Of a stretch of 64,000 nt of DNA, positions 35,222 through 61,020 are shown piece after piece; within the stretch, counting starts at the first letter, position 1; each line of letters opens with the position of its first letter. Position numbers and translations under genes: made by a program. Origin of the DNA: Thermoguttaceae bacterium. GTDB lineage: Bacteria; Planctomycetota; Planctomycetia; Pirellulales; Thermoguttaceae. The notes below the pieces were generated by a model. It was not told the origin of the DNA and made no database searches. It worked only from the letters and a program-made list of their open reading frames with translations. Location: positions 14,689-78,688 of the forward strand of contig JAGBDN010000007.1 in assembly GCA_017937485.1 (NCBI GenBank). Reading direction: 5' to 3'.

Positions 35222-35495
35222 TTTCTTGACGGCGAGAAAAAACGACGGTCGCAAGGGCGGCGTTTGTAAAAAAGCGGCGAACCGAACGATTTTTGAACGG
35301 CGAAAACGCGCTTGCGTCGACGGCCCCCCTTTTTTTTCGCGCTTGTCCGGATACAATGAAAACGACGATTTTGCGGGAACTCGTCTTTTCGCGAAACAAA
35401 CGTCGATTTTGGTTTTGTTTTTTGTTCGCGTTCATTTGGCGAAGTTGCGAACGACGTTCGAGAAAACCGGCGGCGACCGGGCGGAGGCGTTTTCA

Positions 35496-40796: not shown

Positions 40797-42086
40797 ATGC
40801 AACACGAGACGAAAAACGAACGGCGCGAGAAAAAAGCGCTCGGATATAAACACGAATGGACCGACACCGGCGGACATTCTCATCGCGTTATTTTCGATAA
40901 AAAAACGTTGGAGCGACCGCAAACGACTTGGAAAGCGTTGACGTTTGTCGCCGCGTTGGGGTTGTTGATCGGCGGCGTCGCGATTTTAACGGCGCCGCGC
41001 AAGGACGCCGGACGTTTGCCGTTGGCGCCGACGAATATTCGACCTGATTTTGCGTTGACGACGACGTTGCGGAACTTGACGACGGAACGTCCGGTCGCTT
41101 TGGCCGCCGGTTGGGGCGACGAGTTCTTCTTAGCCGATCGCGGCGGGGTCGGCCTGTATCGCGTCGGAAACGGCGAGCGATTGCAGTATTGGAAAAGCGA
41201 CGCCGGGAGCGCGCCGACCGCGCTGACGTTTATCGCCGACGAAACGAGCGAGAAAAACGGCGCGCTTTTGATCGCGTATCCGGAGCGAATCGACGCGATT
41301 TACTTCGCGACCGACCGCGTTTTGAACGAAGCGGCGGCGAACGCGAAGGAAAACAACGGCGAAGGCGAAGATAAGAAAAACGTCTCCGCCGAAGAAAACA
41401 AACCGGCGCGAACCGCTCAAAACGCCGCGCTTGGCGAAGCGACGACGATTTTGGCGATTCCGGGCGCCTCGATCGCGGCGGTCGCGGCGTCGCCGGAACG
41501 GCTTTTTGTCGGCGATTTTAACGCGGGGCGCATTTGGCGATACTCTTGGCGAACGCTCGACGCGTTGCGCGGCGCCGAGAAAAAAGAAACGCCGCCCGAT
41601 TGCGAGATCGGCGCGCCGGACGGCGGGCTGGCTTATCCCGGTTTTCGACCGGCGACGGAGCCGTATATGAGCGTCGTTTATTCGCCGGAGACCAACGAAA
41701 TCGTCGTCGCGAATTCCGGGCTTTTCCGCGTCGACGCGTTCAACGTCGATTCCGGCGTTTGGAACGCGGCGCATTCTTGGAGCAAAACACCCGGAATGGA
41801 ACGCGCGTTCGCGGGCGCGGCGAACCCGATCGCGCTCGTCGTTTCGCCGAGCGGTTGGGTCGCGACCGCCGAAACCGGAAAAATCGACGCCGCGAGCGGA
41901 AAAAAGTCGCCGTTGCAAATTTTCGACGCGAAAAACGGAAATTGGATTTCCGAAATTTTGCTCGGCGTTCCGACGCAAGACGAAGCGCGCGTCGCGACGC
42001 CGATCGGTTTGGCGCTTAGCGAAGACGGTCGCCAAATTTGGGCGTTGAAATCGAACGGCGAGGTGGAGATTTACGCAAGTCGTTAA
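40797..42086 (+). CDS. Membrane-anchored protein, possibly beta-propeller fold
   Basis: One TM segment (ALTFVAALGLLIGGVAIL), followed by repetitive beta-rich sequence. No catalytic motif recognised. Confidence 0.7.
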   Translation: MQHETKNERREKKALGYKHEWTDTGGHSHRVIFDKKTLERPQTTWKALTFVAALGLLIGGVAILTAPRKDAGRLPLAPTNIRPDFALTTTLRNLTTERPVALAAGWGDEFFLADRGGVGLYRVGNGERLQYWKSDAGSAPTALTFIADETSEKNGALLIAYPERIDAIYFATDRVLNEAAANAKENNGEGEDKKNVSAEENKPARTAQNAALGEATTILAIPGASIAAVAASPERLFVGDFNAGRIWRYSWRTLDALRGAEKKETPPDCEIGAPDGGLAYPGFRPATEPYMSVVYSPETNEIVVANSGLFRVDAFNVDSGVWNAAHSWSKTPGMERAFAGAANPIALVVSPSGWVATAETGKIDAASGKKSPLQIFDAKNGNWISEILLGVPTQDEARVATPIGLALSEDGRQIWALKSNGEVEIYASR

Positions 42087-42253: not shown

Positions 42254-43225
42254 TTAGCGCGTCCAGCAAGGCGAGCGTTTTTCGAGGAACGCGGCGATTC
42301 CCTCGCGCCCGGCGTCCGACGCCCAAGAACGGCAATGTTCGAGCCAACCGGCGCGGATTTCGGCGTCGGTCGGGAGAAGCGCGGCGTTGAAAAGGCGTTT
42401 GGCGGTCGCGAGGGAACGCGGTTCGTTCGCGAGGAATCGGGCGACGGCGGCGTCGACGGTCGCGTCGAAGTCGTCGGGGGCGGCGAGCGTTTGAACGAGC
42501 CCGACGTCGGCGGCGCGAGAAGCGTCGAACGGCGCGGCGGTCAAAACGAACTCTTGGAGCGCGGCGAGCGGCAATTTTCGGCGCAAAAACGGGAAAAGAA
42601 GACTCGGCGAAAGACCGCGTTTCGTTTCGGTGAAGACGGCGCGGAACGTCGAGTCGGCGACGACGAAATCGCAAGCGGAAACGAACCCGGCGCCGCCTCC
42701 GCAAGCCGCGCCGCGAACCGCCGCGACGATCGGTTTCGGCGTTAAGCGAATTTGACGCAAAAGCTCCAACACAAGACGCGGCAAGACTTGGAAACGCGAT
42801 AGTTTCGTCGGGAAGTCGACTTCTCGCGGCGCGAACGTTTGCGCCGCGAGGTCGAGCGGCGTCGCGGCGCGGTTTGAGGGAACGAACGGAGCGGCTGTTT
42901 CGGCGGTTTGAACGCGAAAATCGTCGAGAGCGAGGTTCGCGGCCTGGAGCGTTTCGAGCGGAATCGACGCGCCGTTCGTCGCCTCGTCGAGGTCGAGTCC
43001 GGCGCAAAAATGCTTGCCGGCGCCGCGCAGGACGACGAGACGCGTCGAAGCGTCGTCGGCGATTTGGCGCAGTTCGGCGAGAAGACGGCGCAACAGCTCG
43101 AACGAAAGCGCGTTGCAACGTTCCGGACGGTTCAGCGTTAACGTCGCGACGCCGCGGTCGTCGTCGGTTCGCGTCAACGGAGCGGATAAATCGGGAAGAT
43201 TGGGGGAATTAGGGGAGGCGGTCAT
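42254..43225 (-). CDS. Enoyl-CoA hydratase/isomerase (crotonase) family protein with internal insertion
   Basis: LTLNRPERCNAL, GAGKHFCAGLDL, KPIVAAVRGAACGGGAGFVSACD. Start MTASPNSPN at 43225; its ATG overlaps the xerC-like stop codon as ATGA. Confidence 0.85.
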   Translation of the reverse strand: MTASPNSPNLPDLSAPLTRTDDDRGVATLTLNRPERCNALSFELLRRLLAELRQIADDASTRLVVLRGAGKHFCAGLDLDEATNGASIPLETLQAANLALDDFRVQTAETAAPFVPSNRAATPLDLAAQTFAPREVDFPTKLSRFQVLPRLVLELLRQIRLTPKPIVAAVRGAACGGGAGFVSACDFVVADSTFRAVFTETKRGLSPSLLFPFLRRKLPLAALQEFVLTAAPFDASRAADVGLVQTLAAPDDFDATVDAAVARFLANEPRSLATAKRLFNAALLPTDAEIRAGWLEHCRSWASDAGREGIAAFLEKRSPCWTR

Positions 43226-44565
43226 TGGAATTGCGCGGGGTTGGCGAAGTTGGGGGGAACGTCGACGGAAAACGCGGCGGACGACGGGGAGTCCGCGGAG
43301 GGAAGCGTCGAGGAATTTAAACCGAGGCGGGCGCGCGGGTGCGATTTTTCGTAAATCGCGCGCAGCGACGCCGTCGAGACGTGCGTGTAAATTTGCGTCG
43401 TAACAATGTTTTTGTGTCCCAATAGTTCCTGGATGGAACGAATATCGGCGCCGGAGTCGAGCAGGTGCGTCGCGAAACAATGTCGGAGCGTGTGCGGCGA
43501 CGCTTTGGAGTCGAGGCCGGTTTCTTGCAGATAAGCGTCGAGTTTGCGCCCGATGCTGCGAACGTTGAGGCGACCGCCGTTTTTGTTGATAAAAATCGGT
43601 TCCGCGAGGAACGCTTCCCAACGCCGTCGCGCCGCCGGGTCTTGGAAGTCGACGAAAGGAACGTTGGGCGGCGAGGAAACGTCGGCGTCGGGGGCGGAAA
43701 CGGCGGAATCGGACGGAACGCCGACCGCTTCGTCGCCGGAATTGGGCGAGTTGGTTAGGTTGGCGAAATGCGTCGACGCTAATAAGTGGGAAAGGTTGGG
43801 AAAGTTGGGAAGCGACGAGTCGGCGGACGAGCGAACAAAAAGAGCGACGAAAGCGCGTTCTTCGTTCGACGGCGGCGACGCGGCGGCGAAATAATCGCGG
43901 TTGCGGCGCCCGCGCTCGGCGGAAGCGACGCGGAGATACCGTCGCGACGTCAGCAAGTAGCGGAGAATCGCCTCTTTAGCGAACGAACCTAAAAAAGCGA
44001 ACCGTTCGCGGCGGCCTTTCCCGCGGATTTTGAGGAGGTCTTCGTCGAGAACGACGTCGGAAAAATTGAGCCCGACCAACTCGCCGACGCGCAAACCGGC
44101 GGAGTAAATCGTTTCGAGAATCGCCCGGTCGCGGAGGCCGAGCGGGTCGTCTTCCGGAGGCGCCGACAAAAGTTTGAGAACGTCGTCGGTCGACATCACT
44201 CGAGGAAGGGGGCGTCGACCGCGCGGATTGCGAAGCGCCGCCGCCGGATTCTCGACCGCCCAACCTTCGCGCTCGCCGAATTTATAAAAACCGCGCAACG
44301 ACGCTAAACGTCGTGAAATCGTCGCTTTAGAATAGTCGGCTTCCCGCATCGCCGAGAGATAGCCGCGCAGTTCGAGAACCGAAACTTGATCCGGACGCGG
44401 GCAAACGCCGTCGCGGGCGGCCAGTTCGTACTCGAGCCAAGCCTCCAAGTCTTCGCGGTAACTTTTGATCGTATAATCGGAAAAGTTGCGCTCGACGGCG
44501 AGGAAACGGAGAAATCGGGCGATGGGAACGCGCAGGTTTCTTTCGTTAGACGGCGGTGTCGGCAT
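43222..44565 (-). CDS. Tyrosine recombinase XerC/XerD-like with ~100-aa low-complexity insertion and C-terminal tail
   Basis: N-terminal SAM-like core-binding domain (FLRFLAVERNFSDYTIKSYREDL). Catalytic AGLRVGEL, HTLRHCFATH, LGHKNIVTTQIYTHV. The insert lies between LRYL and PIFINKNGGRL. Confidence 0.88.
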   Translation of the reverse strand: MPTPPSNERNLRVPIARFLRFLAVERNFSDYTIKSYREDLEAWLEYELAARDGVCPRPDQVSVLELRGYLSAMREADYSKATISRRLASLRGFYKFGEREGWAVENPAAALRNPRGRRPLPRVMSTDDVLKLLSAPPEDDPLGLRDRAILETIYSAGLRVGELVGLNFSDVVLDEDLLKIRGKGRRERFAFLGSFAKEAILRYLLTSRRYLRVASAERGRRNRDYFAAASPPSNEERAFVALFVRSSADSSLPNFPNLSHLLASTHFANLTNSPNSGDEAVGVPSDSAVSAPDADVSSPPNVPFVDFQDPAARRRWEAFLAEPIFINKNGGRLNVRSIGRKLDAYLQETGLDSKASPHTLRHCFATHLLDSGADIRSIQELLGHKNIVTTQIYTHVSTASLRAIYEKSHPRARLGLNSSTLPSADSPSSAAFSVDVPPNFANPAQFQ

Positions 44566-46381: not shown

Positions 46382-47242
46382 TTATTTGTTGAATTTCTCG
46401 ACGAACTCGACGATCGGCGTCGGGTCTTTCAGCGAGTGCGGGTGATGGTCGTTGCCGGGTTTAAGAATCAACTCGACCGGGCCGCCGACCGCTTCGTAAC
46501 GCTCTTTGAAGAGTTTCGCGTTTTCCGGGAACGGAACGACGCGGTCGGAGTCGCCGCAAACGAGGAAGACGCCGACTTTCGCCGCCGCCATCTTCTTTTG
46601 GCCGTCGGTATTGTCGATCGGGTTGAGCGAGTATTTCATCGCTTCTTCTTGCGTCAACTCGTAACTTTGCAGGACGGAGTTCCAGTCGCCGTCGCTGCGC
46701 TTTCCTTCGCCGTATCCGCCGGGCCAACTTTTGAAGTCGAGAACCGGGTTGTCGATGTAAATCGTCGCGACTTGCTCCGGATACGCCATCGCCCAGTTGA
46801 CGGTGTAAAGGCCGCCGCGGCTCATCCCTTCGAGGTTCGTTTTCTTGGCGAAGCCGTGTTCTTTCGTCAGATAAAGGTAAAAATCTTGCCAAAGCGCGAC
46901 CGATTTCGGCGACCCCATCAGCGGCGCGGAATTAATGTAAGCGACGGCGTAACCGCGGTTTAACATCGCGACGTCGAATTGCGGTTCGTGTCCGAAGAAA
47001 CGAGCGCGCCAAATCCAAGGCTTGCCGGGCGCCGCCTCTTTCGGGAAGACGAGTTTCGCGGCGCGCCCTTGGAATTGGAAGTCGTTGCATTGGAAACCGT
47101 TCCATTGGCCGACTTTGCCGGGGAAGGTCGAAACCGGCGCGGCGGGCGTTTCTTGCGCGAGCGTTTGCGTCGGCGAACAAAGAGCGGTCGCGGCGGTCAA
47201 CGCGGCGACGATTAACGACGTGAAAAATTGTTTGCGGTTCAT
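46382..47242 (-). CDS. Secreted alpha/beta hydrolase (esterase-like)
   Basis: Signal peptide MNRKQFFTSLIVAALTAATALCSP, nucleophile elbow GMSRGG, and late D and H residues. AAAGGAG RBS. The upstream 275 codons of the track ORF overlap the activase gene and are spurious. Confidence 0.82.
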   Translation of the reverse strand: MNRKQFFTSLIVAALTAATALCSPTQTLAQETPAAPVSTFPGKVGQWNGFQCNDFQFQGRAAKLVFPKEAAPGKPWIWRARFFGHEPQFDVAMLNRGYAVAYINSAPLMGSPKSVALWQDFYLYLTKEHGFAKKTNLEGMSRGGLYTVNWAMAYPEQVATIYIDNPVLDFKSWPGGYGEGKRSDGDWNSVLQSYELTQEEAMKYSLNPIDNTDGQKKMAAAKVGVFLVCGDSDRVVPFPENAKLFKERYEAVGGPVELILKPGNDHHPHSLKDPTPIVEFVEKFNK

Positions 47243-47424: not shown

Positions 47425-48300
47425 CTAAGGCAAATCGGGGTCGAATCGGCGGTCTAAAAGGGCGTATTTCGCGCCCGCCGCGACGTTGTACGGGAGGAAC
47501 TCGACGCCGAGCGCCGACGGAACGCCGTCGACGAGCCGCTCGACCGCCGCGCGCTCCGCCGGGGAGTCGTTGACGCCGGGAATTAACGGCGTTCGGACGA
47601 CGAACGGACGACCGCTCGCGCAAAGTCGCCGCAGATTCGCCAAAATCGGCGCGGAGTCGACGCCGGTCCAACGCCGCGAACGCTCCGGGTCGAGAATCTT
47701 GACGTCGAAGTAAACTAAGTCGACGCAAGACGTTAGCGCGTCGAAGACTTCCGGCGACGCGAACCCGCAAGTTTCGAGCGCGACGTGAATTCCGGCGTCG
47801 CGCAACGACCGCGCCAGTTCGACGGCGAACTCCGGTTGGAAAAGCGGTTCGCCGCCGGTCAAGGTAACGCCGCCGCCGGAAAGCTCGAACAGGTCGCGTT
47901 GCCGCAAGAGCCGCTCGACGAGCGTCGGGACGTCCGTTTCCCAACCGCAAAGGTTCCGCGCGCCTTGCGGGCAAAGGTCGACGCAACGTCCGCAAGCGAC
48001 GCAAACGTCGCGACGGGAACGGCTTAACGCCGCGTCGCAAATTTTCTCGCAAGCGCCGCAACCCGAACAACGCGAACGGTTTAGCAAAAGCTCCGGCGTC
48101 GGCGCTTGACTCTCCGGATTATGACACCAACGGCAGCGGAGCGGGCAGCCTTTGAAAAAAACGCTCGTTCGAACGCCGGGGCCGTCGTGCAGCGCGAACT
48201 CGCGAACTTCGAAAATAAGGCCGCGAACCGGTCGAGGCGGGCGGTCGGACGCGGCGATTTCGGCGGAGTTGGCGGCGGATTTTCGGGAAAAATCGGACAT
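47425..48300 (-). CDS. Glycyl-radical enzyme activating enzyme (radical SAM)
   Basis: CPLRCRWCHN (CxxxCxxC, 48124-48147) plus two ferredoxin-like motifs, CSGCGACEKIC and CVACGRCVDLC. GGVTLTGGEP SAM motif. Confidence 0.9.
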   Translation of the reverse strand: MSDFSRKSAANSAEIAASDRPPRPVRGLIFEVREFALHDGPGVRTSVFFKGCPLRCRWCHNPESQAPTPELLLNRSRCSGCGACEKICDAALSRSRRDVCVACGRCVDLCPQGARNLCGWETDVPTLVERLLRQRDLFELSGGGVTLTGGEPLFQPEFAVELARSLRDAGIHVALETCGFASPEVFDALTSCVDLVYFDVKILDPERSRRWTGVDSAPILANLRRLCASGRPFVVRTPLIPGVNDSPAERAAVERLVDGVPSALGVEFLPYNVAAGAKYALLDRRFDPDLP

Positions 48301-48389: not shown

Positions 48390-50507
48390 TTACGTCGGGA
48401 ACGTCGTTTCGGCGCGGCGGAGGATTTGATCTTGGTAAGGCCGGTCGAGTTCGACGAAGTAACCGCTCCAACCCCAAACGCGAACGATCAGGTTGCGATA
48501 TTTTTCCGGATTTTTTTGCGCGTCGAGAAGGCGGTCGCGGTTAACGGCGTTCAGTTGCATCTGCGCGCCTCCCCGTTTGACGAAAAATTGAACGAGCCGA
48601 GCGACCTTTTCGACGCCGTCGGCGAACGCGAAAACGGAGTCGTGCAGTTCGAGCGTCAACGGGCCGCCGTTGACGACGCGGGTTAAGTCCGGCTTGGCGA
48701 AGGACGCGACGACGCCGACCGGGCCGCGAATCGGAACGCCGAGCGACGGCGCGTAATTCGCCGGAAACGGCTCGCCGCGCCGCCGACCGTCCGGGGACGC
48801 CGGGAGTTCGTTCGCGTGCCAAAGGTAATACATCGCCGAACCGGTTCCGGGACGGAAGACGCCGCCGCGGCAGTTGCGCCGCCCTTCCCAAGAATCGGCG
48901 AAGTCGGCGAGAAGGCGAACCGCGAGCGCGTCCGGTTCCGGCTCGTCGTTTCCCATTTTCGGGAGGCGGCGGGCCCGGGCGAGGAGTTCGGCGGCTTCCG
49001 GGAAGCGCTCGGCGTCGAAATCGGCGTCGAGAATTTCGACGAAACGCGCCGGGCTAACGCGTTTTTCGTCGAAAACGAGCCGCTTGATCGCGAAAAGGGA
49101 GTCGACCGCCGGCGCGACGCCGGTTCCGTGTATTCCGAAATTGACATACTTGCCGCCGGACGCCGCGTCGCGAGCCGCTTCGACGCGACCGTCGCAAAGG
49201 AGCGAAACGAGCGGGCAAGGGAGAACGTCGAAACGTTCGAGCGACTCGGCGATTTCGTCGGCGCGGCGGAAAAGCTCCGCTCGGAAGAGCGCGAGGAAAG
49301 CGTCGAAGTCGTTGTTTTCCGCCGCTTGCGTCGCTTCCGGGGAACGGAGAACCGCGTCGACCGCCGCCGGGAAAGAGACCGCCGCGACGTTCGGAACGTC
49401 GCTCCCGACGCCGGGGATAACGAATTCCCAACAAGCGGCGACGGTGTAATCGCGGGCGTCGGCGAGGTCGTAACCGAGTTTCGTTAAGCCGGGGATAACG
49501 ACGTCGTCGTTGGCGTATTGCGGGAAGCCGAGTCCGAGGCGCGTCAGATCGGTCGCCTTTTTCAGCAAGTCGAACGACGTCGCCGACGAAACGCGGAGGT
49601 TAATTTTCGGGTCGATTAAGCGATTTTGGCCGCAAGCCTCTAAGGCGAGTTCCGTCAAGAGGTTCGACGCGTCGGCGCCGGTCGAATCGCACCCGCCGAG
49701 CATCAAACTTTGACCGTTGTCCCCTTGTTGGACGCCGACGTAAAGGTCGGAATCGCGGTTGAACGAGAGGAAAAATTCGGCGACCAACTCGCGCGCGCCG
49801 TCGCGGTCGAGCCGTCCGGCGGCGAGGTCGGCGTCCAAATACGGAGCGAAAATTTGGTCGAACCGCCCGACGCCGTTGTGATACGCGCCTTCGCACCAAA
49901 GGGAATAATGCAAAATTCGGAAAAATTGGAACGCTTCGAGGAGGGTTCGCGCTCCGCGGCGCGGAACTTGCGCGAGCGTTTCGGCGATTTCGGTCAGTCC
50001 GGCTTGCTCGGCGGCGGCGCGGTACGACTCGGCGAGACGGAGAATCGCGTCGACGCTTGCGAGAGTCGCGGTCAAAAAGTCGATTCCTTCGGCGTCGGAT
50101 TCGGTTTGCGCTTGTTCAAGTCGTTCGACGATTTCGGCGCGGCGAGCGTCGAGCCCGACGGCGATCGTCGCGGCGTAATTCGGACTGACGTTGAAAACGA
50201 CGCCCAACTCGTGTAAATACGCCGACTTGCGCAGCTCCGCCGTTTCCGCGTCGGAACAGCGCGGCGGGAGGTTGCGAACCGTTCGGGTTAGCGCGATTCG
50301 TTCGTCGGGGAGAAAAACGGGCGTCTTCGCTTCTTCGTCGAGGACGGCGATTAAGCCTTCGGCGGCGCGGGCGCAACGGGCGGTCGTTAGGTCGGCGCGG
50401 TTCGGGAGGGCGGCGTTCCAATCGACGTCGCGGCGGAAAGCGGCTTGTTTCTTGGCGACGATAAAGTCGCGCAGGGCGGTTAAACGTTCGCTAAGCGGGG
50501 CGGTCAT
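48390..50507 (-). CDS. Glycyl-radical enzyme, PFL2/eliminase-like, short form (705 aa), substrate unknown
   Basis: C-terminal glycyl motif IVRVWGWSGYFVEL (Gly codon 48471-48473). Thiyl loop TVAACWEFVIPG (Cys codon 49431-49433, Glu two residues later). Directly followed by a dedicated activase. Confidence 0.9.
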   Translation of the reverse strand: MTAPLSERLTALRDFIVAKKQAAFRRDVDWNAALPNRADLTTARCARAAEGLIAVLDEEAKTPVFLPDERIALTRTVRNLPPRCSDAETAELRKSAYLHELGVVFNVSPNYAATIAVGLDARRAEIVERLEQAQTESDAEGIDFLTATLASVDAILRLAESYRAAAEQAGLTEIAETLAQVPRRGARTLLEAFQFFRILHYSLWCEGAYHNGVGRFDQIFAPYLDADLAAGRLDRDGARELVAEFFLSFNRDSDLYVGVQQGDNGQSLMLGGCDSTGADASNLLTELALEACGQNRLIDPKINLRVSSATSFDLLKKATDLTRLGLGFPQYANDDVVIPGLTKLGYDLADARDYTVAACWEFVIPGVGSDVPNVAAVSFPAAVDAVLRSPEATQAAENNDFDAFLALFRAELFRRADEIAESLERFDVLPCPLVSLLCDGRVEAARDAASGGKYVNFGIHGTGVAPAVDSLFAIKRLVFDEKRVSPARFVEILDADFDAERFPEAAELLARARRLPKMGNDEPEPDALAVRLLADFADSWEGRRNCRGGVFRPGTGSAMYYLWHANELPASPDGRRRGEPFPANYAPSLGVPIRGPVGVVASFAKPDLTRVVNGGPLTLELHDSVFAFADGVEKVARLVQFFVKRGGAQMQLNAVNRDRLLDAQKNPEKYRNLIVRVWGWSGYFVELDRPYQDQILRRAETTFPT

Positions 50508-50666: not shown

Positions 50667-52088
50667 TTACGCGGCTTTGTCGGCTTTCGGCTTCCAACGC
50701 TCTTCGACGTTTTCGATCGTGCCGCCCTTCGTTTCCGGCATCAATTTCCAAGCGAAGAAGAACTGGAGCGCCGTCATCGACGCGAAGAAGTAAAACGCGT
50801 ATTGCCCGGACGTTTCGGCGATCATCGGGAACGTCCAGCTAACGGCGGCGCACATAAACCAGTGGGTGAAACTGCCGAGCGCTTGGCCCTTCGCCCGAAC
50901 GGCGTTCGGGAAAATTTCCGAGATAAAGACCCAAATGACCGCGCCTTGCGAGACGCCGAAAAAGGCGATGAAGCCCAAAATCGCCGGAACGACGATAAAG
51001 GAGTTCGCCGCGTCGCCGAGCCCGATTTGCCAAGCGGCCAAGAGGTGCATAATCGTCGTGCCGACGGCGCCGAACATCAGCAGGAAACGGCGGCCGAAAC
51101 GGTCGATTAAGAAGAGCGCGGCGATCGTCGCCAAAAGGTTGACCGCGCCGAGCCCGATCGTAACGCCGAGCGCGGCTTGCTTGCCGATGAACATTTCGAA
51201 AATGCGCGGCGCGTAATAGTTGATCGCGTTGATGCCGGAAACTTGGTTGAACATCGCGACGGCCCAAGCGAGGAAAATCGGCGTAAAGTAAGCCTTTTGG
51301 AAGAGCGGAACGTTTTGGCCGCCTTCGGCTTTCGCAAGGGACGCGGAGATTTCGCCGAGCGTCGTTTCGGGGGAAACGTCGCCGATGCGCGCGAGAACTT
51401 TCTTCGCTTCTTCCGGGCGACCGAAGCGGACGAGTTGGCGCGGGCTTTCCGGAATCGTGAAGAGGAGGAAGAAGAAGAGCGCCGCCGGGAACGCCTCGAC
51501 GCCGAGTTGGAGCCGCCAAATAATCGACTCGAACGGAAGCGGCGTCGACGTAAAGCAAGCCGCGAGGCTTTCGCAAGCGCCGCCGAGCGCGCCGTTCGGG
51601 TTGATTTGCGCGACGTAATAGTTCGAAATGTAAGAAACGAGAATGCCGAGAACGATATTCAATTGGTTCAGCGCGACCAAACGACCGCGCATCGGGCCCG
51701 GCGCCGATTCGACGATGTAAAGCGGAACGACGACCGACGAACCGCCGATCGCGAGACCGCCGAGCCAACGCATAAAGACGAGCGTCGCCCAGTTCGGCGC
51801 GAACGCGCAACCGACCGCCGAAACGAAGTAAAAGACCGCCATAACGATCAAAATCGGCTTGCGTCCAAAAACGTCGGTCGGACGGCCGATTCCGAACGCG
51901 CCGATAATCGTCCCGATCAGCGCGACCGCGACCGTGAAGCCGTGCCAAAAACCGTCCAAACCGTATTCGGTTTGAATCGCTTTTTCGCAGCCGGAAATGA
52001 CGCCGGAGTCGAAACCGAAGAGGAGACCGCCGAGCGCGGAAACGATAACGATGTAAAACAAGTAAGTGCGACCAACGGCGGACGACAT
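50667..52088 (-). CDS. MFS transporter, sugar porter family
   Basis: GGLLFGFDSGVISG, GRKPILIV, PESPRQL .. and 12 predicted TM segments. Start MSSAVGR at 52088. Confidence 0.9.
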   Translation of the reverse strand: MSSAVGRTYLFYIVIVSALGGLLFGFDSGVISGCEKAIQTEYGLDGFWHGFTVAVALIGTIIGAFGIGRPTDVFGRKPILIVMAVFYFVSAVGCAFAPNWATLVFMRWLGGLAIGGSSVVVPLYIVESAPGPMRGRLVALNQLNIVLGILVSYISNYYVAQINPNGALGGACESLAACFTSTPLPFESIIWRLQLGVEAFPAALFFFLLFTIPESPRQLVRFGRPEEAKKVLARIGDVSPETTLGEISASLAKAEGGQNVPLFQKAYFTPIFLAWAVAMFNQVSGINAINYYAPRIFEMFIGKQAALGVTIGLGAVNLLATIAALFLIDRFGRRFLLMFGAVGTTIMHLLAAWQIGLGDAANSFIVVPAILGFIAFFGVSQGAVIWVFISEIFPNAVRAKGQALGSFTHWFMCAAVSWTFPMIAETSGQYAFYFFASMTALQFFFAWKLMPETKGGTIENVEERWKPKADKAA

Positions 52089-52320: not shown

Positions 52321-52349
52321 ATTATAACGCGACTAAGGGGCGGCGTCAA
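52321..52349 (-). promoter_or_regulatory. Near-consensus sigma70 promoter (TTGACG-17-TATAAT) for the MFS/GRE operon
   Basis: Read on the minus strand. The -10 lies 233 nt upstream of the MFS ATG. A hairpin plus T-run follows immediately at 52281-52320. Confidence 0.55.
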
Positions 52350-52382: not shown

Positions 52383-52425
52383 AGAAAAACGCGCCGACGC
52401 TTCGCGGTTGAAACGTCGGCGCGTT
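52383..52425 (-). terminator. Intrinsic terminator after the beta-propeller gene
   Basis: Stem AACGCGCCGACG / CGTCGGCGCGTT, followed by TTTTCTTG on the minus strand. Confidence 0.55.
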
Positions 52426-52466: not shown

Positions 52467-53684
52467 TTATTTTTTCGCGTCGGCTTTCTTGTATTGCGCT
52501 TTCAGGACGGCGTAATCGATTCCGGAGAGCGTCCCCGGCGGGTCGACCTTGCTGTTTTTGAGGCCCGGGAACGGCCAGTCGAAGTTCGCGAAAATCATCT
52601 TGTCGCCGAAACGGCAGGCTTCGCAAGGTTGGTCGAGGAGACCGTCCATCCCGTCGACGTCGCCGTTGATCAGAACGATTTGCGGGTCGACTTTTTGCCC
52701 CTTGGCGACCGGCGCGAACGCCCAAACGGCGTTGTTGCAAGAGTCGTTGATGAGAACGCGGTCGGCTTCCGCGTCGTAAAGCATTCCGTCGCAGCATTCG
52801 AGACGAACGCCCTTGAACGCGCCCGCGTCGACGCCGGTTTGCTTCGTCGCGTCGAAAACGACGACTTCTTGGTTGCGCGGGTACGTGCCGTCGGCGTTCG
52901 GGTAAACGGCGTAAACGAAGCCGTTGCCGAAGTTGCCGAACCAAACGACGCCGTTTTTGTCGACCGCCAAACCGTCCGCGCCGGTGTTGTCGCCGCGACC
53001 GAGCTTAACGACTTTCGGCGCCGCCAAGCAACGCGGATCGTCCGGAGTCGCCGAGATTTTGATCGGCGCGACGCCGTCGCGGCCCGCTTTCGTCGCTTCT
53101 TTAGCGTCGATCATGAAGAGACCGCCGGAACCGACGATTCCGTTCGTCCCGTCTTCGAGGTCGAAACAGGAGTCGGTGTAGAACATCTTGTCGCCGCTCC
53201 AAACGATTCCGTTCGCGAGCTTGCACCCTTCGACGACCGTTTGGATTTCGCCGGTCGCTTTGCCGTCTTTGAAAACGACGCGCAAAATGCGGGATTGGAA
53301 GTCTTTAGAGTGGAAATATTGGTTGTCGCAAACGTAAAGGTCGCCGTCCGGGCCGAAGTCGAGCCCCATCGGGCCGCATTGACCGGTCGACTTCAAAATC
53401 GGGTAGTCGAGAACCTTTTTAAAGGAACCGTCTTTCGCGACCGCGACGAGATAACCGCCCTGCGCCGAGTCGGCTTTCTTCATATCGGCGTCCATTCGCC
53501 CGAAGTTCGGGACGTTCAGATAAAGAACGTTCGGGTCGAAGTCGGCGACCGTCATTCCGTCCGGCGTGTAGTTGGCGGCGCCGAGGTCGGAGAAGAGGGT
53601 CGTTTTCGGTTCGGCGGCAAACGCGACGGCGCCGCAAAGGAGAACGCTCGTCGAAAGAGCGAGGGTCGTTTTCGAAATTTTCAT
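52467..53684 (-). CDS. Secreted beta-propeller protein (SMP-30/gluconolactonase/LRE-like or NHL-like)
   Basis: Signal peptide MKISKTTLALSTSVLLCGAVAFA. Repeated blade-like segments (PMGLDFGPDGDLYV, ANGIVWSGDKMFYTD, ADGLAVDKNGVVWFGN). The family call is moderate. Confidence 0.78.
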   Translation of the reverse strand: MKISKTTLALSTSVLLCGAVAFAAEPKTTLFSDLGAANYTPDGMTVADFDPNVLYLNVPNFGRMDADMKKADSAQGGYLVAVAKDGSFKKVLDYPILKSTGQCGPMGLDFGPDGDLYVCDNQYFHSKDFQSRILRVVFKDGKATGEIQTVVEGCKLANGIVWSGDKMFYTDSCFDLEDGTNGIVGSGGLFMIDAKEATKAGRDGVAPIKISATPDDPRCLAAPKVVKLGRGDNTGADGLAVDKNGVVWFGNFGNGFVYAVYPNADGTYPRNQEVVVFDATKQTGVDAGAFKGVRLECCDGMLYDAEADRVLINDSCNNAVWAFAPVAKGQKVDPQIVLINGDVDGMDGLLDQPCEACRFGDKMIFANFDWPFPGLKNSKVDPPGTLSGIDYAVLKAQYKKADAKK

Positions 53685-53856: not shown

Positions 53857-56800
53857 TCATTCGAGCGTCGGAACGACGACTTCGCCGCGACGTTGCGCGT
53901 CGAGCGACTCCATCTCGTAAGCGCCGAAGAAGTCGCAGTTGTTGTCCATCCAAAGGGCGAGCGCGCGTTTTTCCTCGTCGGAAAGTTTGACGTCGTAGTG
54001 CCCTTCTTTCAGGACTTGCCAAAGTCGGGAGCGGTTGGCGCCGAATTGGCCCGGGAACGTGCGCGCCGGAGCGAAGCTGTTCCAAGCGCCGCCGTGCGTC
54101 GGTTGTTCCTTCATCGGCGCGCTCGGGTTGTTGTTCCCGTTGCCGGCGACGTAAACGTAAGGACGCAGGTTGAAATACGACGTCGTGAAGTATTGGCCTT
54201 CCGGACCGCGACCGAGTTCGAACGTTTCGCCGGCTTTCGCTTTTTCGGCGTGGCAGTCGACGCAATGACGGTCGAGAATCGGTTGCACTAAGCGCGGGAA
54301 ATTGAACGGGTTCGAACCGGGAACGTCCGGCTTGATTTGCGACGGCGCGCGTTGGAACGCGAGCGGCGCCGCGACGTCGGCGTTTTGCGCCGTGTTGTGG
54401 CGACCTTCGTGGCAGCCGAGGCAGGTCAGCGTTTCGCCCGGGTGAACGTAAGCGGCGCTTCGCATCGTTTGCACCGCGACGCCGTTTTCGTCCAACGCTT
54501 GGAAGTAGAACGGAACGCCGGTCGGCGCTTCGAAACGAACGCTCCCGTCTTCCTCGACCGGAACCGTGCCGAGAACCTTGCGGGCGCCGTTTTCGCCGGC
54601 GTAACCGATCCAAGGCTGGTTCGCGTTCCAAGTCGTTTTCGGGAGAACTTGGACGATTCGCAACTCCTTAATTTTCGTTCCTTCCGGGAACGGACGGTTC
54701 GTTTTGTAAACGTCGACGACGCCGATGGTCGCGGTTTTCGGCAACTCGGCGGGGATTTCGAAACGGTCTTTTTGCGCTTCCGGAATCCCGACGAGCGTTT
54801 GGTGCGGAACGACCGGCGGAACCGGGCGCGTCTCGACCGCTCGCGGCCATTGGCAGCTGATTTTCTCGTCGCGGTGCAGGAGAACCTTGTTCCCGAACGC
54901 GTCGAGGAGGTAAAGACCGTAACGGTTCCCTTCGCCCTTGGCCGAACCGCTGAACGCGTCGTAAACGACGAGGAAGAAGTCTTCGCTAAGCGGGTAAGGT
55001 TGACCGAAGTTGTGCGGCGGGCCGTGCGTGCCGATCTCCGCTTCCGGGAAGAGCTGTTCCGGCGTGATTCGTTGAATCGGCCCCATCGGGTCGCCGCCGT
55101 TTTCGTCGTCTTCGGCGGTCGGGTCGATCAAAATGACGGAGCCGAAGTTTTGCGTGTGGTGCCCGGACGCCGTCCCGGAGAGGAGAACGGAGTCGGGAAC
55201 TTGGTTCAACGTCGTTTCGAAGTGCGGGCGCGAACGTTCGTTTTCGGAGTAGTTCCCCTGAATCGCGCGAGCGTCGCGACCGTCCGGGAACGTAACCCAA
55301 GGATGGTGCGCTTGGTTGAAACCGCGGTCGACGTAATCCCAACGGGTGTAAACGATCATCCCGGCGGCGTCGATCGTCGGCGCCCATTCGTTCGTTTCGT
55401 GAACGCTAAGCGGAACAATGTCGCTTCCGTCGGCGTTCATCGAGTGGAGCGTGTAACTCGGGCAGGGGCGCGCGTGGCAGCGACCGTAACCGCCGCGACG
55501 TTCCGAGATAAAGACGATTCGACCGTTCGGCATAAGGTAAGGATCGAAGTCGTTCCAAGGGCCGTCGGTCAGTTGAATGAGGTCGGTTCCGTCGATATTG
55601 ACGCGGAAGAGGTGGTAGCAGTTGTCTTCCGTCCAAACGTAGGAGTGGCGTTGCGGCGACGTGTCCGCGGCGGCGAAGTAAATCGTTTTGCCGTCGTAAG
55701 TTAAGTGCGGCGAGAGGAAACCCCAGCTCGAGTCGAGCTTGCGCCCCTTCAAGCGACCGTTCGAAACGACCGCGTTTTCGAGGACGTTAACGACTTCCGG
55801 CTTCTCCGAAAAGGCGTTTTTGAGGACGTAAAGGCCGCCGCCCGGGCGCGCGTGGAAACCGAAGAACTGGTCGCACATATGGTTCCCTTGCTTCTCCGGC
55901 TCCGGATTGTAGTGACGCTTGATGAAGAGAATATCGTCGAACGTCAAGAGCGGGTTTTTGAGCGCGACGGAGCGGCGAATCTTAACCGCTTCGACGAAAA
56001 GGGTTTGGCGTTCCGCTTTTTGCTCGACCGGGGTCGCGTCGGCGCGTTTTTTGAGGTCGGCGAGCGTCGCGACGTCGGCGGCGAGTTCCTTTTCGTCGAG
56101 CGTTTCGAGGAGCGCTTCGACGAGACGGTCGATTCGGCGCAACGCGACGTCGAGCGGGTCGCGGTCGGTTTTGAGAATCGTCGAAGCCGGGTCGCGGGCG
56201 TCTTTGGCGACGTAATCGCTCGTCGGCCCGGCGGCGATTTGTCGCGTCAACGAAAGAAATTCGCGCGCCGCTTCGAGCGTTTGCGGGTCGGTGGTTTCGT
56301 CGTAAATTTTGCCGTCGGCGCCGACGAAGAGCGGGCGAACGATCGCGAGGTCGTCCGCGCCTTCCGCCGAAACTTCAAAGCGCGCGTCGCCGTAAACCGC
56401 GTGGTCGTGGGCGTAACCTTCCGTTCCGGTTTCGAGTTCGAGGAGAAGCGTCGACTTGCCGGTCAAGTCGAGTTCGCAAACTTTCGCCGCTTCTTTCCCC
56501 TTCATAAACCCGCTGCGCCAAACGAGTTGACCGTCGGCGAACGCGAGAAACTCCATATGGCCCTGACCGTTCGTTTCGTCGGCGATTCCGACTTCGGTAA
56601 TGAAGCGAACCGAGCCGGTTTCCGGGAGGCGAACGACGAGGCGGCCCGGCGAGTGCGAGCCGACGCCGCGTTCGAAGGTTTTTCCGGCGACGATCAGCGG
56701 GTTGCCGTCGACCGTTTTGCCGTCTTGGGCGGCTTTGTAACCGCATTCGACGGCGCTTAAGTCGAGGTCGTCGAGATAGACGGTCGTTTTACCGTCGTTG

Positions 56801-56865
56801 GAAAAGGCGGTCGCGGCGCCGAGCGTCGCGGCGAGGACAGCGGATAGGAAAACGGGGACGCGCAT
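53857..56865 (-). CDS. Secreted multidomain protein: NPCBM-like carbohydrate-binding module, PD40/TolB-like beta-propeller region, C-terminal domain with two CxxCH motifs
   Basis: Start MRVPVFLSAVLAATLGAATA at 56865. DDLDLSAVECGYKAAQDGKTVDGNPL..GVGSHSP is NPCBM-like. YDGKTIYFAA..PNGRIVFISER..NADGSDIVPLS are PD40-like. CLGCH is at 54409-54423 and CVDCH at 54250-54264. Confidence 0.85.
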   Translation of the reverse strand: MRVPVFLSAVLAATLGAATAFSNDGKTTVYLDDLDLSAVECGYKAAQDGKTVDGNPLIVAGKTFERGVGSHSPGRLVVRLPETGSVRFITEVGIADETNGQGHMEFLAFADGQLVWRSGFMKGKEAAKVCELDLTGKSTLLLELETGTEGYAHDHAVYGDARFEVSAEGADDLAIVRPLFVGADGKIYDETTDPQTLEAAREFLSLTRQIAAGPTSDYVAKDARDPASTILKTDRDPLDVALRRIDRLVEALLETLDEKELAADVATLADLKKRADATPVEQKAERQTLFVEAVKIRRSVALKNPLLTFDDILFIKRHYNPEPEKQGNHMCDQFFGFHARPGGGLYVLKNAFSEKPEVVNVLENAVVSNGRLKGRKLDSSWGFLSPHLTYDGKTIYFAAADTSPQRHSYVWTEDNCYHLFRVNIDGTDLIQLTDGPWNDFDPYLMPNGRIVFISERRGGYGRCHARPCPSYTLHSMNADGSDIVPLSVHETNEWAPTIDAAGMIVYTRWDYVDRGFNQAHHPWVTFPDGRDARAIQGNYSENERSRPHFETTLNQVPDSVLLSGTASGHHTQNFGSVILIDPTAEDDENGGDPMGPIQRITPEQLFPEAEIGTHGPPHNFGQPYPLSEDFFLVVYDAFSGSAKGEGNRYGLYLLDAFGNKVLLHRDEKISCQWPRAVETRPVPPVVPHQTLVGIPEAQKDRFEIPAELPKTATIGVVDVYKTNRPFPEGTKIKELRIVQVLPKTTWNANQPWIGYAGENGARKVLGTVPVEEDGSVRFEAPTGVPFYFQALDENGVAVQTMRSAAYVHPGETLTCLGCHEGRHNTAQNADVAAPLAFQRAPSQIKPDVPGSNPFNFPRLVQPILDRHCVDCHAEKAKAGETFELGRGPEGQYFTTSYFNLRPYVYVAGNGNNNPSAPMKEQPTHGGAWNSFAPARTFPGQFGANRSRLWQVLKEGHYDVKLSDEEKRALALWMDNNCDFFGAYEMESLDAQRRGEVVVPTLE

Positions 56866-58746: not shown

Positions 58747-61020
58747 TTATTTCGTCGCCGGGATTTCGCGAATGATACCGAAGTCGATGTATTGACCGCC
58801 TTTGGTTTGCTTGCAGTGGATCGCGATCGTGTTTTTGCCCGCTTTCAGCGCTTTTTTCAGCGCGACGGCGTCCAAACCGAGGTAACCGTAGGAAGCGTAG
58901 CTCGTGCATTTCGCGACTTCGACGCCGTTGACGTAGATTTCGCAATCTTCGTCGTGGTAGCCGTAACCGACGAGTTGGGTAACGTCGGCGATATCTTCGG
59001 CGGCGATTTCAACGTCGCGGCGAATCCAAATGTCGCTCGTGTCCCAAACGGTGCGGACGTTCGTGTCCGGCGTGTCTTTCGTGCCGAACCCGGCTTCGCC
59101 GACTTTCCAAGCGGAAGCGTCGAAATCGACGGCGGCCCAGTTATCGGCCGGTTTTTCGAAGGTGTAGCTCCATTTTTGAGCGTTCGTCTTCGAGCAAGGA
59201 ACGACGACTTTGACTTCCGGAGCCGGAAGGCGGAGCGCTTCGTTCGATTTGCGCATCGCGTCGACCGGGAACTTAATGACGGCGCGGTCGTAGGTCATGA
59301 AACCGTTGAGTTCGATTTCGACGTCGGTCGTTTGGGTGTAAACGGCCGCCGAGAGACCGGCTTCGATGAGCGCGCGCATTTCGCGGTTTTGGTTGTTGTA
59401 GAACGAGAAGAGCGCTTCCGGAGTTTCGAACAGACCGCCGTAACCCCAGTTCGAGTCTTCTTGCCAAACGTGGCCGCTGACCTTCAGGCCGAGACCGCCG
59501 TATTCGCCGAGGACGGACGCGCGGTTTTCTTCGGCCGGGAACATGCCCGGGCCGCGATATTTGTGCATATCGTGGATATCGCCGCATTCGGCGCGGTCGG
59601 CCCAACCGGACGTGCAGATGATCGGACGGGTCGAGTCCAGTTTACGGCAGAGGTCGACGATGCGGTAGGTGTCGAATTGGCCCCAACCTTCGTTGAACGG
59701 AACCCAAACGACGATGCACGGGTAAACGTCGAGCGCGTCGAACATTTGACGGAGTTCGGTTTCGTAGTAGGAAACCGATTCCGGCGTGCGTTCGGCGTCC
59801 GGAGCGTTCGGCGCGATGTAGTTTTTCGTGTCGCCGCTCGGCATGTCTTGCCACATCAGGAAGCCCAAGCGGTCGCATTCGTAGTAGTAGCGCGCCGGTT
59901 CGACTTTGATGTGCTTACGAATCATATTGTAGCCGAGGTCTTTGAGGACTTTCATGTCGTAGACCATCGCTTCGTAAGTCGGCGGGGTGAGGAGACCGTC
60001 CGGCCACCAACCTTGGTCGAGCGGACCGTGTTGGAAGAGGAACTCGTTGTTCAGCATAAGACGGGTGATACCCTTGGCGTCTTTGCCGATCGAGGTTTTG
60101 CGCATCGCGTAATACGACTTGACCGTGTCGACCGTCGCGTCGCCCTTGACGAGCGAAACTTCGAGGTCGTGGAGGTTCGGCGTATCCGGCGTCCAGAGGG
60201 CCTTGCCTTTGGCGTCGAGCGTGATCGTCGCTTTGTTGGAAACGACTTTCGCGGTTTGGTCGCCGATTTTGACCGCGCAACCTTCGGCGTTCGCGACTTC
60301 GACGACGACGGCGCAGGTCATATCGTCGATATCCGGAATCGGGCGAACCTTAACGATGTGCGCCTTCGAAACCGGTTCGAGCCAAACGGTTTGCCAAATA
60401 CCCGAGACCGGCGTGTACCAAATGCCGTGCGGGTTTTCGATTTGTTTGCCGATCGGTTGCGGGCCTTTGTTCGTCGGGTCCCAAACTTTGACGACGAGCG
60501 TTTGAGCGCCTTCTTTTTTGAGCGCGCGGGTAACGTCGACCGTGAACGGGGTGAAGCCGCCTTGGTGGTGGCCGACTTTAACGTCGTTGACGAAGACGTC
60601 GGCGCGCCAGTCGACGGCGCCGAAGTTCAGCATAATTTCTTTGCCGGCCCAGTCGGCGGGAACTTCGAACGTCGTTTTGTACCAAAGGTTGTTTTCCGCG
60701 CCGACTTTTTTACCGACGCCGGAGAGCGCGGATTCGGCGCAGAACGGAACGAGGATTTGACCTTGCGGCGCTTCGAATTTGTCGGCGACCGGAAGAATCG
60801 CGTAGTCCCAAAGGCCGTTCAGGTTGACCCAATCGGCGCGAACCATTTGCGGACGCGGGTATTCCGGAAGCGGTTTGGCCGGGTCGACGTCTTTCGCGAA
60901 TTTCGAAAGCAAAATACCTTCGACCGGCTTCCAGTCGGCCGAGAAGACGTTTTGAGCGCTCGCGATCGCGACGACGCCCAAGAGAGCCGAAACGACTCCC
61001 GTCAGGAACGATTTTTTCAT
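58747..61020 (-). CDS. Glycoside hydrolase family 2 enzyme with C-terminal carbohydrate-binding-like domain
   Basis: Signal peptide MKKSFLTGVVSALLGVVAIASA. GH2 sugar-binding domain (LNFGAVDWRADVFVNDVKVGHHQGGFTPF). Acid/base WVPFNEGWG and nucleophile region LGEYGG. The track ORF's upstream 377 codons overlap the next gene and are spurious. Confidence 0.9.
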   Translation of the reverse strand: MKKSFLTGVVSALLGVVAIASAQNVFSADWKPVEGILLSKFAKDVDPAKPLPEYPRPQMVRADWVNLNGLWDYAILPVADKFEAPQGQILVPFCAESALSGVGKKVGAENNLWYKTTFEVPADWAGKEIMLNFGAVDWRADVFVNDVKVGHHQGGFTPFTVDVTRALKKEGAQTLVVKVWDPTNKGPQPIGKQIENPHGIWYTPVSGIWQTVWLEPVSKAHIVKVRPIPDIDDMTCAVVVEVANAEGCAVKIGDQTAKVVSNKATITLDAKGKALWTPDTPNLHDLEVSLVKGDATVDTVKSYYAMRKTSIGKDAKGITRLMLNNEFLFQHGPLDQGWWPDGLLTPPTYEAMVYDMKVLKDLGYNMIRKHIKVEPARYYYECDRLGFLMWQDMPSGDTKNYIAPNAPDAERTPESVSYYETELRQMFDALDVYPCIVVWVPFNEGWGQFDTYRIVDLCRKLDSTRPIICTSGWADRAECGDIHDMHKYRGPGMFPAEENRASVLGEYGGLGLKVSGHVWQEDSNWGYGGLFETPEALFSFYNNQNREMRALIEAGLSAAVYTQTTDVEIELNGFMTYDRAVIKFPVDAMRKSNEALRLPAPEVKVVVPCSKTNAQKWSYTFEKPADNWAAVDFDASAWKVGEAGFGTKDTPDTNVRTVWDTSDIWIRRDVEIAAEDIADVTQLVGYGYHDEDCEIYVNGVEVAKCTSYASYGYLGLDAVALKKALKAGKNTIAIHCKQTKGGQYIDFGIIREIPATK

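Follow-up and report, generated by a model that had tools for sequence, protein, structure and literature searches.

A gene for a compact glycyl radical enzyme (GRE) was analysed computationally after an earlier note, made from the sequence alone, had drawn attention to its length and its catalytic loops. The gene lies at 48390..50507 on the (-) strand of a 64,000-nucleotide stretch of DNA (hereafter, the window) from a Thermoguttaceae bacterium (contig JAGBDN010000007.1). Its 705-aa product, read from an ATG start, is identified here as a genuine GRE of the Cys-x-Glu (1,2-eliminase/isomerase) class, because the fingerprint, the alignment of the catalytic Cys and Glu, the domains and the superposition of the predicted model all agree. 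By its relatives it is also a member of a distinct, widespread and uncharacterised clade, named here after its RVWGWS and C-W-E loops. We think it reasonably probable that the protein is a functional Cys-x-Glu GRE (eliminase or isomerase) of this new compact clade that acts on an imported sugar or sugar-like molecule. Because the gene shares an operon with an activating enzyme and a sugar importer, the enzyme probably carries out an as yet uncharacterised radical reaction on an imported sugar. GREs give anaerobes chemistry that is not otherwise possible, and each newly assigned GRE clade has exposed a new pathway, as for choline to trimethylamine, hydroxyproline, isethionate and anhydro-sugars. 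The present clade is represented in hundreds of bacterial species from the herbivore gut, the human gut and sediments, which span at least three phyla, and its members are mis-annotated as pyruvate formate-lyase (PFL).

The 705-aa open reading frame and both signature loops described in the earlier note were located, and the motifs recurred in homologues. The glycyl loop RVWGWSGYF (48456..48482, (-) strand), read from the translation, holds the radical Gly679 between Trp678 and Trp680 and was invariant in a family set of 145 full-length members (641-709 aa, median 689). The Cys loop AACWEFVIPG (49410..49439, (-) strand), with Cys359-Trp360-Glu361, was assigned by alignment to known GREs and was also invariant in the family; W678, G679, W680, C359, W360 and E361 were present in 145 of 145 members. 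Of the 120 closest database proteins, 119 had RVWGWSGYF and approximately 114 had AACWEF[IVL][IV]PG. The loop motifs are not due to chance, since they recur in the 120 closest proteins and are invariant in the 145 members. The complete canonical GRE fingerprint, RVxG[FWY]x6-8[FL]x4Qx2[IV]x2R (PMC13450708), was found in the compact GRE as RVWGWSGYFVELDRPYQDQILRR. Trp on both sides of the radical Gly had been called unusual, and this holds for one side only. None of the displayed loops of solved structures had Trp before the radical Gly, whereas the Archaeoglobus fulgidus structure 2f3o has Trp after it (RVAGWSAYF). On this comparison of sequences only the Trp preceding Gly departs from solved and characterised enzymes; the Trp following it is within the canonical fingerprint. 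The same A. fulgidus protein, PFL2 (2F3O), a solved GRE of debated function, resembles the compact GRE in the Trp right after the radical Gly (RVAGWSAYFVEL), and its Gly radical domain was the closest to that of the compact GRE among solved structures. It differs in having Ala before the Gly, a length of 776 aa, an archaeal host and no sugar-porter context.

A mis-called start was ruled out as the cause of the small size by the upstream frame and the homologue alignment. The in-frame stretch upstream of the GRE start runs for 53 codons to a stop that belongs to the preceding major facilitator superfamily (MFS) gene. As had been claimed, no ATG, GTG or TTG was found in these 53 codons. Homologues of 678-709 aa had their own residue 2 aligned with query residue 5-6. 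Because the homologues begin at that point, the assigned start appears right and the short length real.

Pfam matches on the protein comprised PFL-like (PF02901, residues 107-555, 4.8e-83) and Gly_radical (PF01228, residues 586-685, 1e-16). The closest solved structure by sequence was the B12-independent glycerol dehydratase 1r8w (E 5e-74), followed by propanediol dehydratase, PflD, HypD and CutC. An AlphaFold2 model was built from 40 homologues (pLDDT 88.2, pTM 0.90); a Foldseek search matched it to propanediol dehydratase, glycerol dehydratase, CutC and PflD with a query-normalised TM of 0.84-0.87 at 22-26% identity. Superposition, proposed in the earlier note for glycerol dehydratase and CutC among others, thus gave TM ~0.86. 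C359-W-E361 aligned with C433-V-E435 of glycerol dehydratase and with the corresponding residues of propanediol dehydratase, and a multiple alignment matched C359 and E361 to C441 and E443 of Escherichia coli YbiW and to C419 and E421 of E. coli PflD. The middle residue of the loop is W360 in the compact GRE, in contrast to the C-V-E or C-I-E of glycerol dehydratase, propanediol dehydratase, PflD and YbiW. A Cys-Cys pair is not present in the compact GRE, which has a single Cys in this loop. The prediction of a Cys-x-Glu GRE with the C-W-E cysteine as its catalytic Cys was thus upheld by four known enzymes. The class, with Glu as the base, is defined in a GRE review (PMC13450708). A narrower claim, that the enzyme is of the eliminase type (dehydratase or lyase), stands as regards the class, but Cys-x-Glu by itself is no sign of a dehydratase or lyase because the GRE isomerases YbiW, PflD and HplG keep it. 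No NCBIfam equivalog was reached by the compact GRE: the PFL model TIGR01255 gave 53.6 bits against a cut-off of 994.2, TIGR01774 (PFL2-3, the glycerol/propanediol dehydratase subfamily) gave 311.4 bits against 678.2, and the PflD equivalog NF007437 gave 255 bits against 1109.

The best 120 matches of a search over 5.8 billion proteins were all 678-709 aa long and 55-97% identical to the query, and came from Planctomycetia/Thermoguttaceae, Kiritimatiellae and Lentisphaerae. A species-level scan (one genome per species) confirmed at least 523 relatives; those listed included Bacillota (Acutalibacteraceae, Ruminococcaceae and the cultured Acetatifactor aquisgranensis), Bacteroidales and bacteria of the Planctomycetes-Verrucomicrobia-Chlamydiae (PVC) group. 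The window itself was 99% identical to a Thermoguttaceae genome from the rectum of a water deer. Across the 145 members, 112 positions were at least 97% conserved, including N106, H210, Q260, D263, N264, Q266, C359, W360, E361, F362, N373, R552, G556, Y561, E620 and W678-G679-W680. An exhaustive search of 50%-identity representatives revealed a gradient of loop types. RVWGWS with AACWEF reached down to approximately 38% identity; sister clades with RVWGFSAYF and ACWEP came next, then an NDGCWE clade with an ordinary RVAGW or RVSGW loop, and finally the canonical RVAGYSA with GCVE. Trp before Gly and C-W-E are both shared by the RVWGFSAYF/ACWEP clades, and C-W-E alone by the NDGCWE clade. None of the sister clades reached a curated model. 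The suggestion of a distinct clade was therefore supported by the number of relatives, the conserved positions and the failure to reach any curated model. A June 2026 review of characterised GREs described no enzyme of this kind and stated that whole clades are still unvalidated (PMC13450708). Beyond that review, our literature search returned nothing relevant on the clade or on GREs tied to galactosidase, arabinofuranosidase, Planctomycetes or Kiritimatiellae. The representative library also held a 787-aa GRE homologue (P0262) with RVAAYVA, in which Ala replaces the radical Gly; its sequence probably places it among the aminoacyl radical enzymes, a class of recent description covered in PMC13450708.

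The catalytic centre was found to be remodelled beyond the glycyl loop. Asn106 (50190..50192, (-) strand), at the beta1 substrate or leaving-group site, aligned with H164 of glycerol dehydratase, H165 of YbiW and H156 of PflD, and was Asn in 145 of 145 family members. The beta1 His was present in YbiW, PflD and 12 of the 13 canonical representatives aligned. This site is His in HypD, glycerol dehydratase, YbiW and PflD, Asp216 in CutC and Gln193 in IslA (PMC8473560, PMC13450708). The compact GRE, with Asn106, consequently lacks the beta1 leaving-group His that marks C-O cleaving GREs (glycerol and propanediol dehydratase, HypD, YbiW, PflD), a replacement that the earlier note overlooked. Further changes were seen in the alignment with glycerol dehydratase, where His164, Ser282, Tyr640 and Asp447 became Asn106, Asn211, Gly556 and Asn373, and only His281 was retained, as His210. 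Ser282, Tyr640 and Asp447, which we take to be substrate-binding residues of glycerol dehydratase, are thus all three replaced. At the position of the glycerol dehydratase Tyr339 loop (335-340 region) lies a clade-specific invariant loop, YVGVQQGDNGQS (residues 256-267; 49707..49742, (-) strand), in which Q260, G262, D263, N264, G265 and Q266 were invariant in the 145 members; it is the least confident segment of the AlphaFold2 model. Arg552-Pro-Gly-Thr-Gly556 (48840..48854, (-) strand) lies on the strand that bears Tyr640 in glycerol dehydratase, with Tyr changed to Gly and the Arg invariant. In the multiple alignment, Asn at beta1 showed perfect co-variation with two features, the Trp that precedes the radical Gly and the G-D-x-G loop (QQGDNGQ in the compact clade), and near-perfect co-variation with Arg or Lys at position 552; C-W-E accompanies these changes in the compact clade. 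In the NDGCWE clade the beta1 His was kept, and Ala or Ser stood before the radical Gly. Because Asn106, Trp678, the G-D-x-G loop and residue 552 co-vary, the unusual Gly loop is best seen as belonging to a concerted remodelling of the whole catalytic centre. Gly556 and the many Asn, Gln and Asp residues suggest a pocket that is larger and more polar than in the diol dehydratases.

The enzyme was shorter than every strongly matching solved catalytic GRE (759-1150 aa); a 687-aa formate acetyltransferase chain, 38la, matched it weakly. Alignment to YbiW (810 aa), PflD (765 aa) and propanediol-dehydratase-like representatives showed deletions of 9, 25 and 32-33 residues after positions 29, 78 and 98, corresponding to YbiW 27-35, 81-105 and 125-157, and smaller ones of 11, 5, 11 and 5 residues after positions 167, 260, 393 and 421. 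The shortfall relative to YbiW and PflD was about 60-105 residues, of which approximately 66 were deleted within the first 160 residues of the canonical enzymes. An expectation that some 50-140 residues were missing, probably from the N-terminal region, agrees with the approximately 66 lost in these three N-terminal deletions (9 + 25 + 32-33). N-terminal helices form the conserved dimer interface of GREs (PMC13450708), and the deleted segments fall in the region that forms this interface in other enzymes of the family, so that dimerisation may be affected.

In the window, the gene directly upstream of the GRE encodes an MFS sugar-porter transporter (50667..52088, (-) strand; 473 aa from the likely ATG; Pfam Sugar_tr 5.9e-102), whose nearest solved structure is XylE. 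The gene for the activating enzyme, a radical-SAM protein of 291 aa (47425..48300, (-) strand), lies 89 bp downstream of the GRE gene and scored 285 bits against the TIGR02494 cut-off of 174. It carries the radical-SAM motif CPLRCRWC and, as predicted, two extra CxxCxxCxxxC motifs, located as CSGCGACEKIC and CVACGRCVDLC. By these motifs it is the three-cluster radical-SAM kind of activase that installs the radical on a conserved Gly, which would here be Gly679. A strong terminator-like hairpin of 16 pairs (52388..52425, (-) strand) ends the upstream SGL gene, and a sigma-70-like promoter, TTGACG-17-TATAAT (52321..52349, (-) strand; 11 of 12 matches, a consensus match only), lies upstream of the transporter gene. 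The hairpin marks the predicted start of a transporter-enzyme-activase unit, which is read in the order sugar porter, GRE, activase.

Conservation of this arrangement was followed in 84 loci, comprising 7 from exact-protein lookup, 76 of 80 species-genome loci with a callable GRE open reading frame, and the window. The activase adjoined the GRE in 45 of the 84 loci, and one orthologous sugar-porter cluster (41-72% identity) did so in 24. The transporter-enzyme-activase order recurred in Planctomycetia, Kiritimatiellia, Lentisphaerae and Bacteroidales. In a multiple alignment the GRE-linked porters kept 9 of 11 XylE sugar-binding positions, including Trp392. All 25 members carried the signature Q288N + Q415H (XylE numbering), which was not found in XylE, AraE or GalP; this suggests a substrate other than xylose, arabinose and galactose as those three porters recognise them. 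Families were counted among 115 same-strand neighbouring proteins scanned, from three phyla. Melibiase/glycoside hydrolase family 36 (GH36) was the most frequent (8 proteins), followed by GH51 alpha-L-arabinofuranosidase and LacI (5 each), AraC and Sua5 (4 each), FtsJ and an MDP-1-like haloacid dehalogenase (HAD) phosphatase (3 each) and FGGY kinase (2). Aldose 1-epimerase was found three times, with a fourth in locus L078; DUF4867 was found twice among the scanned neighbours and lay within the operon of 4 loci. The GH36-like neighbours matched only the beta-L-arabinopyranosidase model, at 76-212 bits and well under its cut-off, and one GH51 neighbour reached 564 bits against the ArfA cut-off of 625; the neighbouring mutarotase was GalM-type and over its cut-off. 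One Bacteroidales operon read MFS, FucI-like isomerase, class II aldolase, FGGY kinase, MFS, activase, GRE. An operon of Ruminococcaceae added IolB, mutarotase, DUF4867, FGGY kinase and an electron-transfer flavoprotein/FAD-oxidase pair.

In the reaction that we favour, an imported, unphosphorylated sugar or sugar-like molecule would enter a pocket of clade-invariant polar residues, for which Asn106, His210, Gln260, Asp263, Asn264, Gln266, Asn373 and Arg552 are the candidate lining and which Gly556, in place of Tyr, would enlarge. The Cys359 thiyl radical would take hydrogen from a hydroxyl-bearing carbon, Glu361 would deprotonate the hydroxyl of the radical-bearing carbon, and the neighbouring C-O (or other C-X) bond would be broken by radical 1,2-elimination. 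With no general-acid His at hand, either Asp263 would protonate the leaving group or the leaving group would need no protonation. At the end of the cycle Cys359 would give the hydrogen back, and the product could pass to an isomerase, kinase and aldolase route. As to the substrate, a free aldose of L-arabinose/D-galactose configuration, or a close derivative, is the likeliest class in our view, although we hold this only tentatively; L-arabinose or the stereochemically equivalent D-galactose is named because it is the shared product of the two commonest glycosidase neighbours. It is likewise conceivable, at a similarly guarded level, that the clade acts directly on a free, unphosphorylated aldose, most plausibly the L-arabinose or D-galactose that arabinofuranosidases and GH36 arabinopyranosidase/galactosidase-like enzymes set free, by dehydration or ring opening to a deoxy-keto sugar. 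If true, rumen and gut bacteria would widely possess an anaerobic route of pentose/hexose catabolism that has not been recognised before, and the catalytic set Cys-Trp-Glu, Asn106, Asp263 and Arg552 would be unlike that of every studied GRE. The conserved sugar-importer partner, the missing general-acid His and the short architecture make the clade a tractable target for function discovery, and it could show how the barrel accommodates bulky Trp residues on either side of the radical Gly and by what means activases recognise a loop of this kind.

Several observations weigh against the favoured explanation. Among the neighbours, only the mutarotase, IolB and the MDP-1-like HAD phosphatase had family matches over curated cut-offs; all other matches fell below. 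Given the abundance of glycoside hydrolases in the genomes of PVC bacteria, Bacteroidales and gut Clostridia, a degree of adjacency to such genes is expected by chance. Many loci had no informative neighbours. In Lentisphaerae, Victivallales and Verrucomicrobia (L001-L003, L025, L030, L054, L067) the GRE lay between FtsJ/TlyA-like methyltransferase and Sua5/YciO/YrdC genes, and neither the transporter nor the activase was nearby. In L001-L003, the only loci of this type with gene calls, the GRE overlapped both flanking genes by 4 bp; this housekeeping-like context gives no functional clue. Finally, the beta1 amide together with the invariant Arg552 is reminiscent of the residues with which C-S lyases bind sulfonate, a likeness that would favour an anionic substrate over a neutral one.

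This last point bears on a C-X lyase that would remove from a sugar a leaving group that is anionic or good for other reasons (a sulfonate, sulfate ester, phosphate or acyl group), for example by desulfonation of sulfoquinovose or desulfation of a sulfated galactose, a reading that we consider unlikely. It is also unlikely, and to the same degree, that Asn106 and Arg552 take the roles of IslA Gln193 and Arg678. GREs that cleave C-S bonds anchor the sulfonate with two Arg and one Gln (PMC8473560). The compact GRE is like IslA, IseG and HpsG in its beta1 amide (Gln193 in IslA, Asn106 here), which is not the dehydratase His, and in an Arg on the beta8-equivalent strand, where the invariant Arg552 falls at about IslA residues 678-680 by alignment offset only. 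No counterpart of IslA Arg189 was assigned in the compact GRE. The enzyme also differs from these three lyases in its identity to them (~20-21%), a TM of only 0.73-0.79 and the lack of sulfite-handling genes near it. Genomic context pointed both ways. In L064 there is a sulfatase downstream, some loci have as neighbours an SftI-like isomerase and DUF4867, which is known from sulfoglycolysis clusters, and herbivore-gut and PVC hosts meet sulfoquinovose and sulfated glycans. However, the SftI match reached 148 bits where the cut-off is 700, general aldose/ketose metabolism is the setting of the largest DUF4867 cluster, the neighbours included neither a GH31 sulfoquinovosidase nor a sulfite reductase, and transporters of the sugar-porter family normally carry neutral sugars. 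The sulfoquinovose lead, which came from DUF4867 and the SftI-like isomerase, was weakened by the sub-cut-off SftI score, by the lack of a known activity for DUF4867 and by the absence of a sulfoquinovosidase nearby.

An isomerase of the YbiW/PflD type, which would open the ring of a 1,5-anhydro-alditol that the MFS porter imports without phosphorylation and yield a 1-deoxy-ketose for a kinase and an aldolase, is distinctly improbable. YbiW and PflD cleave the ring of 1,5-anhydroglucitol-6-phosphate and 1,5-anhydromannitol-6-phosphate, and the compact GRE shares with the E. coli proteins Cys-x-Glu, a place in carbohydrate catabolism and 28-31.5% identity. PflD was the closer of these two, the only ones compared (BLASTP 31.5% over 571 aa). 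The sugar-metabolism context fits such a reaction, with FGGY kinase and class II aldolase neighbours and a HAD phosphatase that adjoins the GRE in Bacteroidales as YbiV adjoins YbiW; HAD phosphatase, kinase and aldolase genes were present in some compact-GRE neighbourhoods. The known isomerases, in contrast, receive phosphorylated substrates from a phosphotransferase system (PTS) and have the beta1 His (YbiW H165, PflD H156), whereas the compact clade has an MFS importer of free sugar, Asn at beta1 and ~60-105 residues fewer. PTS genes were not present in the window, the score against the PflD model fell far short (255 of 1109 bits), and anhydro-alditols would leave the arabinofuranosidase and GH36 neighbours unexplained.

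A B12-independent glycerol or 1,2-propanediol dehydratase, supplied with substrate from glycosides or deoxy-sugar fermentation, appears very unlikely. The best sequence and fold matches were enzymes of this kind (1r8w, 5i2a and 9rco), Cys-x-Glu is kept, and nearby GDSL-type esterases and glycosidases could free glycerol from galactolipids. The likeness to glycerol dehydratase (Clostridium butyricum, 1R8W/1R9D) and propanediol dehydratase (5I2A/5I2G, 9RCO) extends to the ten-stranded barrel (TM ~0.86), the Gly radical domain and the three-cluster activase. The compact GRE is nonetheless ~80-140 residues shorter, mainly at the N-terminus, and has Trp before the radical Gly. Identity was only 24-26%, the TIGR01774 score was 311 bits against 678, and His164, Ser282, Tyr640 and Asp447 are replaced by Asn, Asn, Gly and Asn. 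The conserved partner in its loci is a sugar porter rather than a glycerol facilitator or the microcompartment or diol genes of the dehydratases; no microcompartment shell protein, aldehyde dehydrogenase or 1,3-propanediol dehydrogenase was seen among the annotated neighbours, which cover the loci in part. Glycerol dehydratase identity was rejected on the motifs and curated cut-offs. PFL, the public annotation of the homologues ("pyruvate formate lyase family protein", "formate C-acetyltransferase"), has next to no chance of being right and was rejected on the defining motifs and the curated cut-off, since a single Cys followed by Trp-Glu stands where PFL has Cys-Cys, TIGR01255 gave 53.6 bits against 994, the activase is of the three-cluster type and the best structural matches are eliminases.

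The surroundings of the operon look, from their gene content, like a glycan-utilisation neighbourhood. Directly upstream, and separated from the unit by the terminator and the promoter, is the gene for a secreted SMP-30/gluconolactonase-like (SGL) beta-propeller (52467-53684, (-) strand); the placing of a lactonase beside a possible sugar-radical enzyme may be significant or fortuitous. Beyond it a secreted protein of ~1002 aa (53857-56865, (-) strand) carries an NPCBM carbohydrate-binding domain and a PD40 beta-propeller repeat together with a "hydrazine synthase alpha middle domain" (3e-24 for PF18582; 48 bits for NCBIfam hydrazine_alpha, whose cut-off is 800), a domain set that is odd for a gut planctomycete. 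A secreted GH2-like glycosidase (58747-61020, (-) strand) had its best matches to beta-glucuronidase and beta-galactosidase models, far below cut-off. On the other side of the operon, a secreted alpha/beta-hydrolase (46382-47242, (-) strand) gave a Peptidase_S9 match just over the Pfam cut-off and no NCBIfam match. Three long open reading frames with coding-like composition, at 31111-33756 (-), 35226-36365 (+) and 40797-42086 (+), encode 881, 379 and 429 aa and were without a Pfam match at E 0.001. At 43222-44565 on the (-) strand, a 447-aa tyrosine recombinase resembling XerC/XerD was matched by Phage_integrase in two separate stretches, which implies a long Ser/Pro/Ala-rich insertion of ~150 aa inside the catalytic domain.

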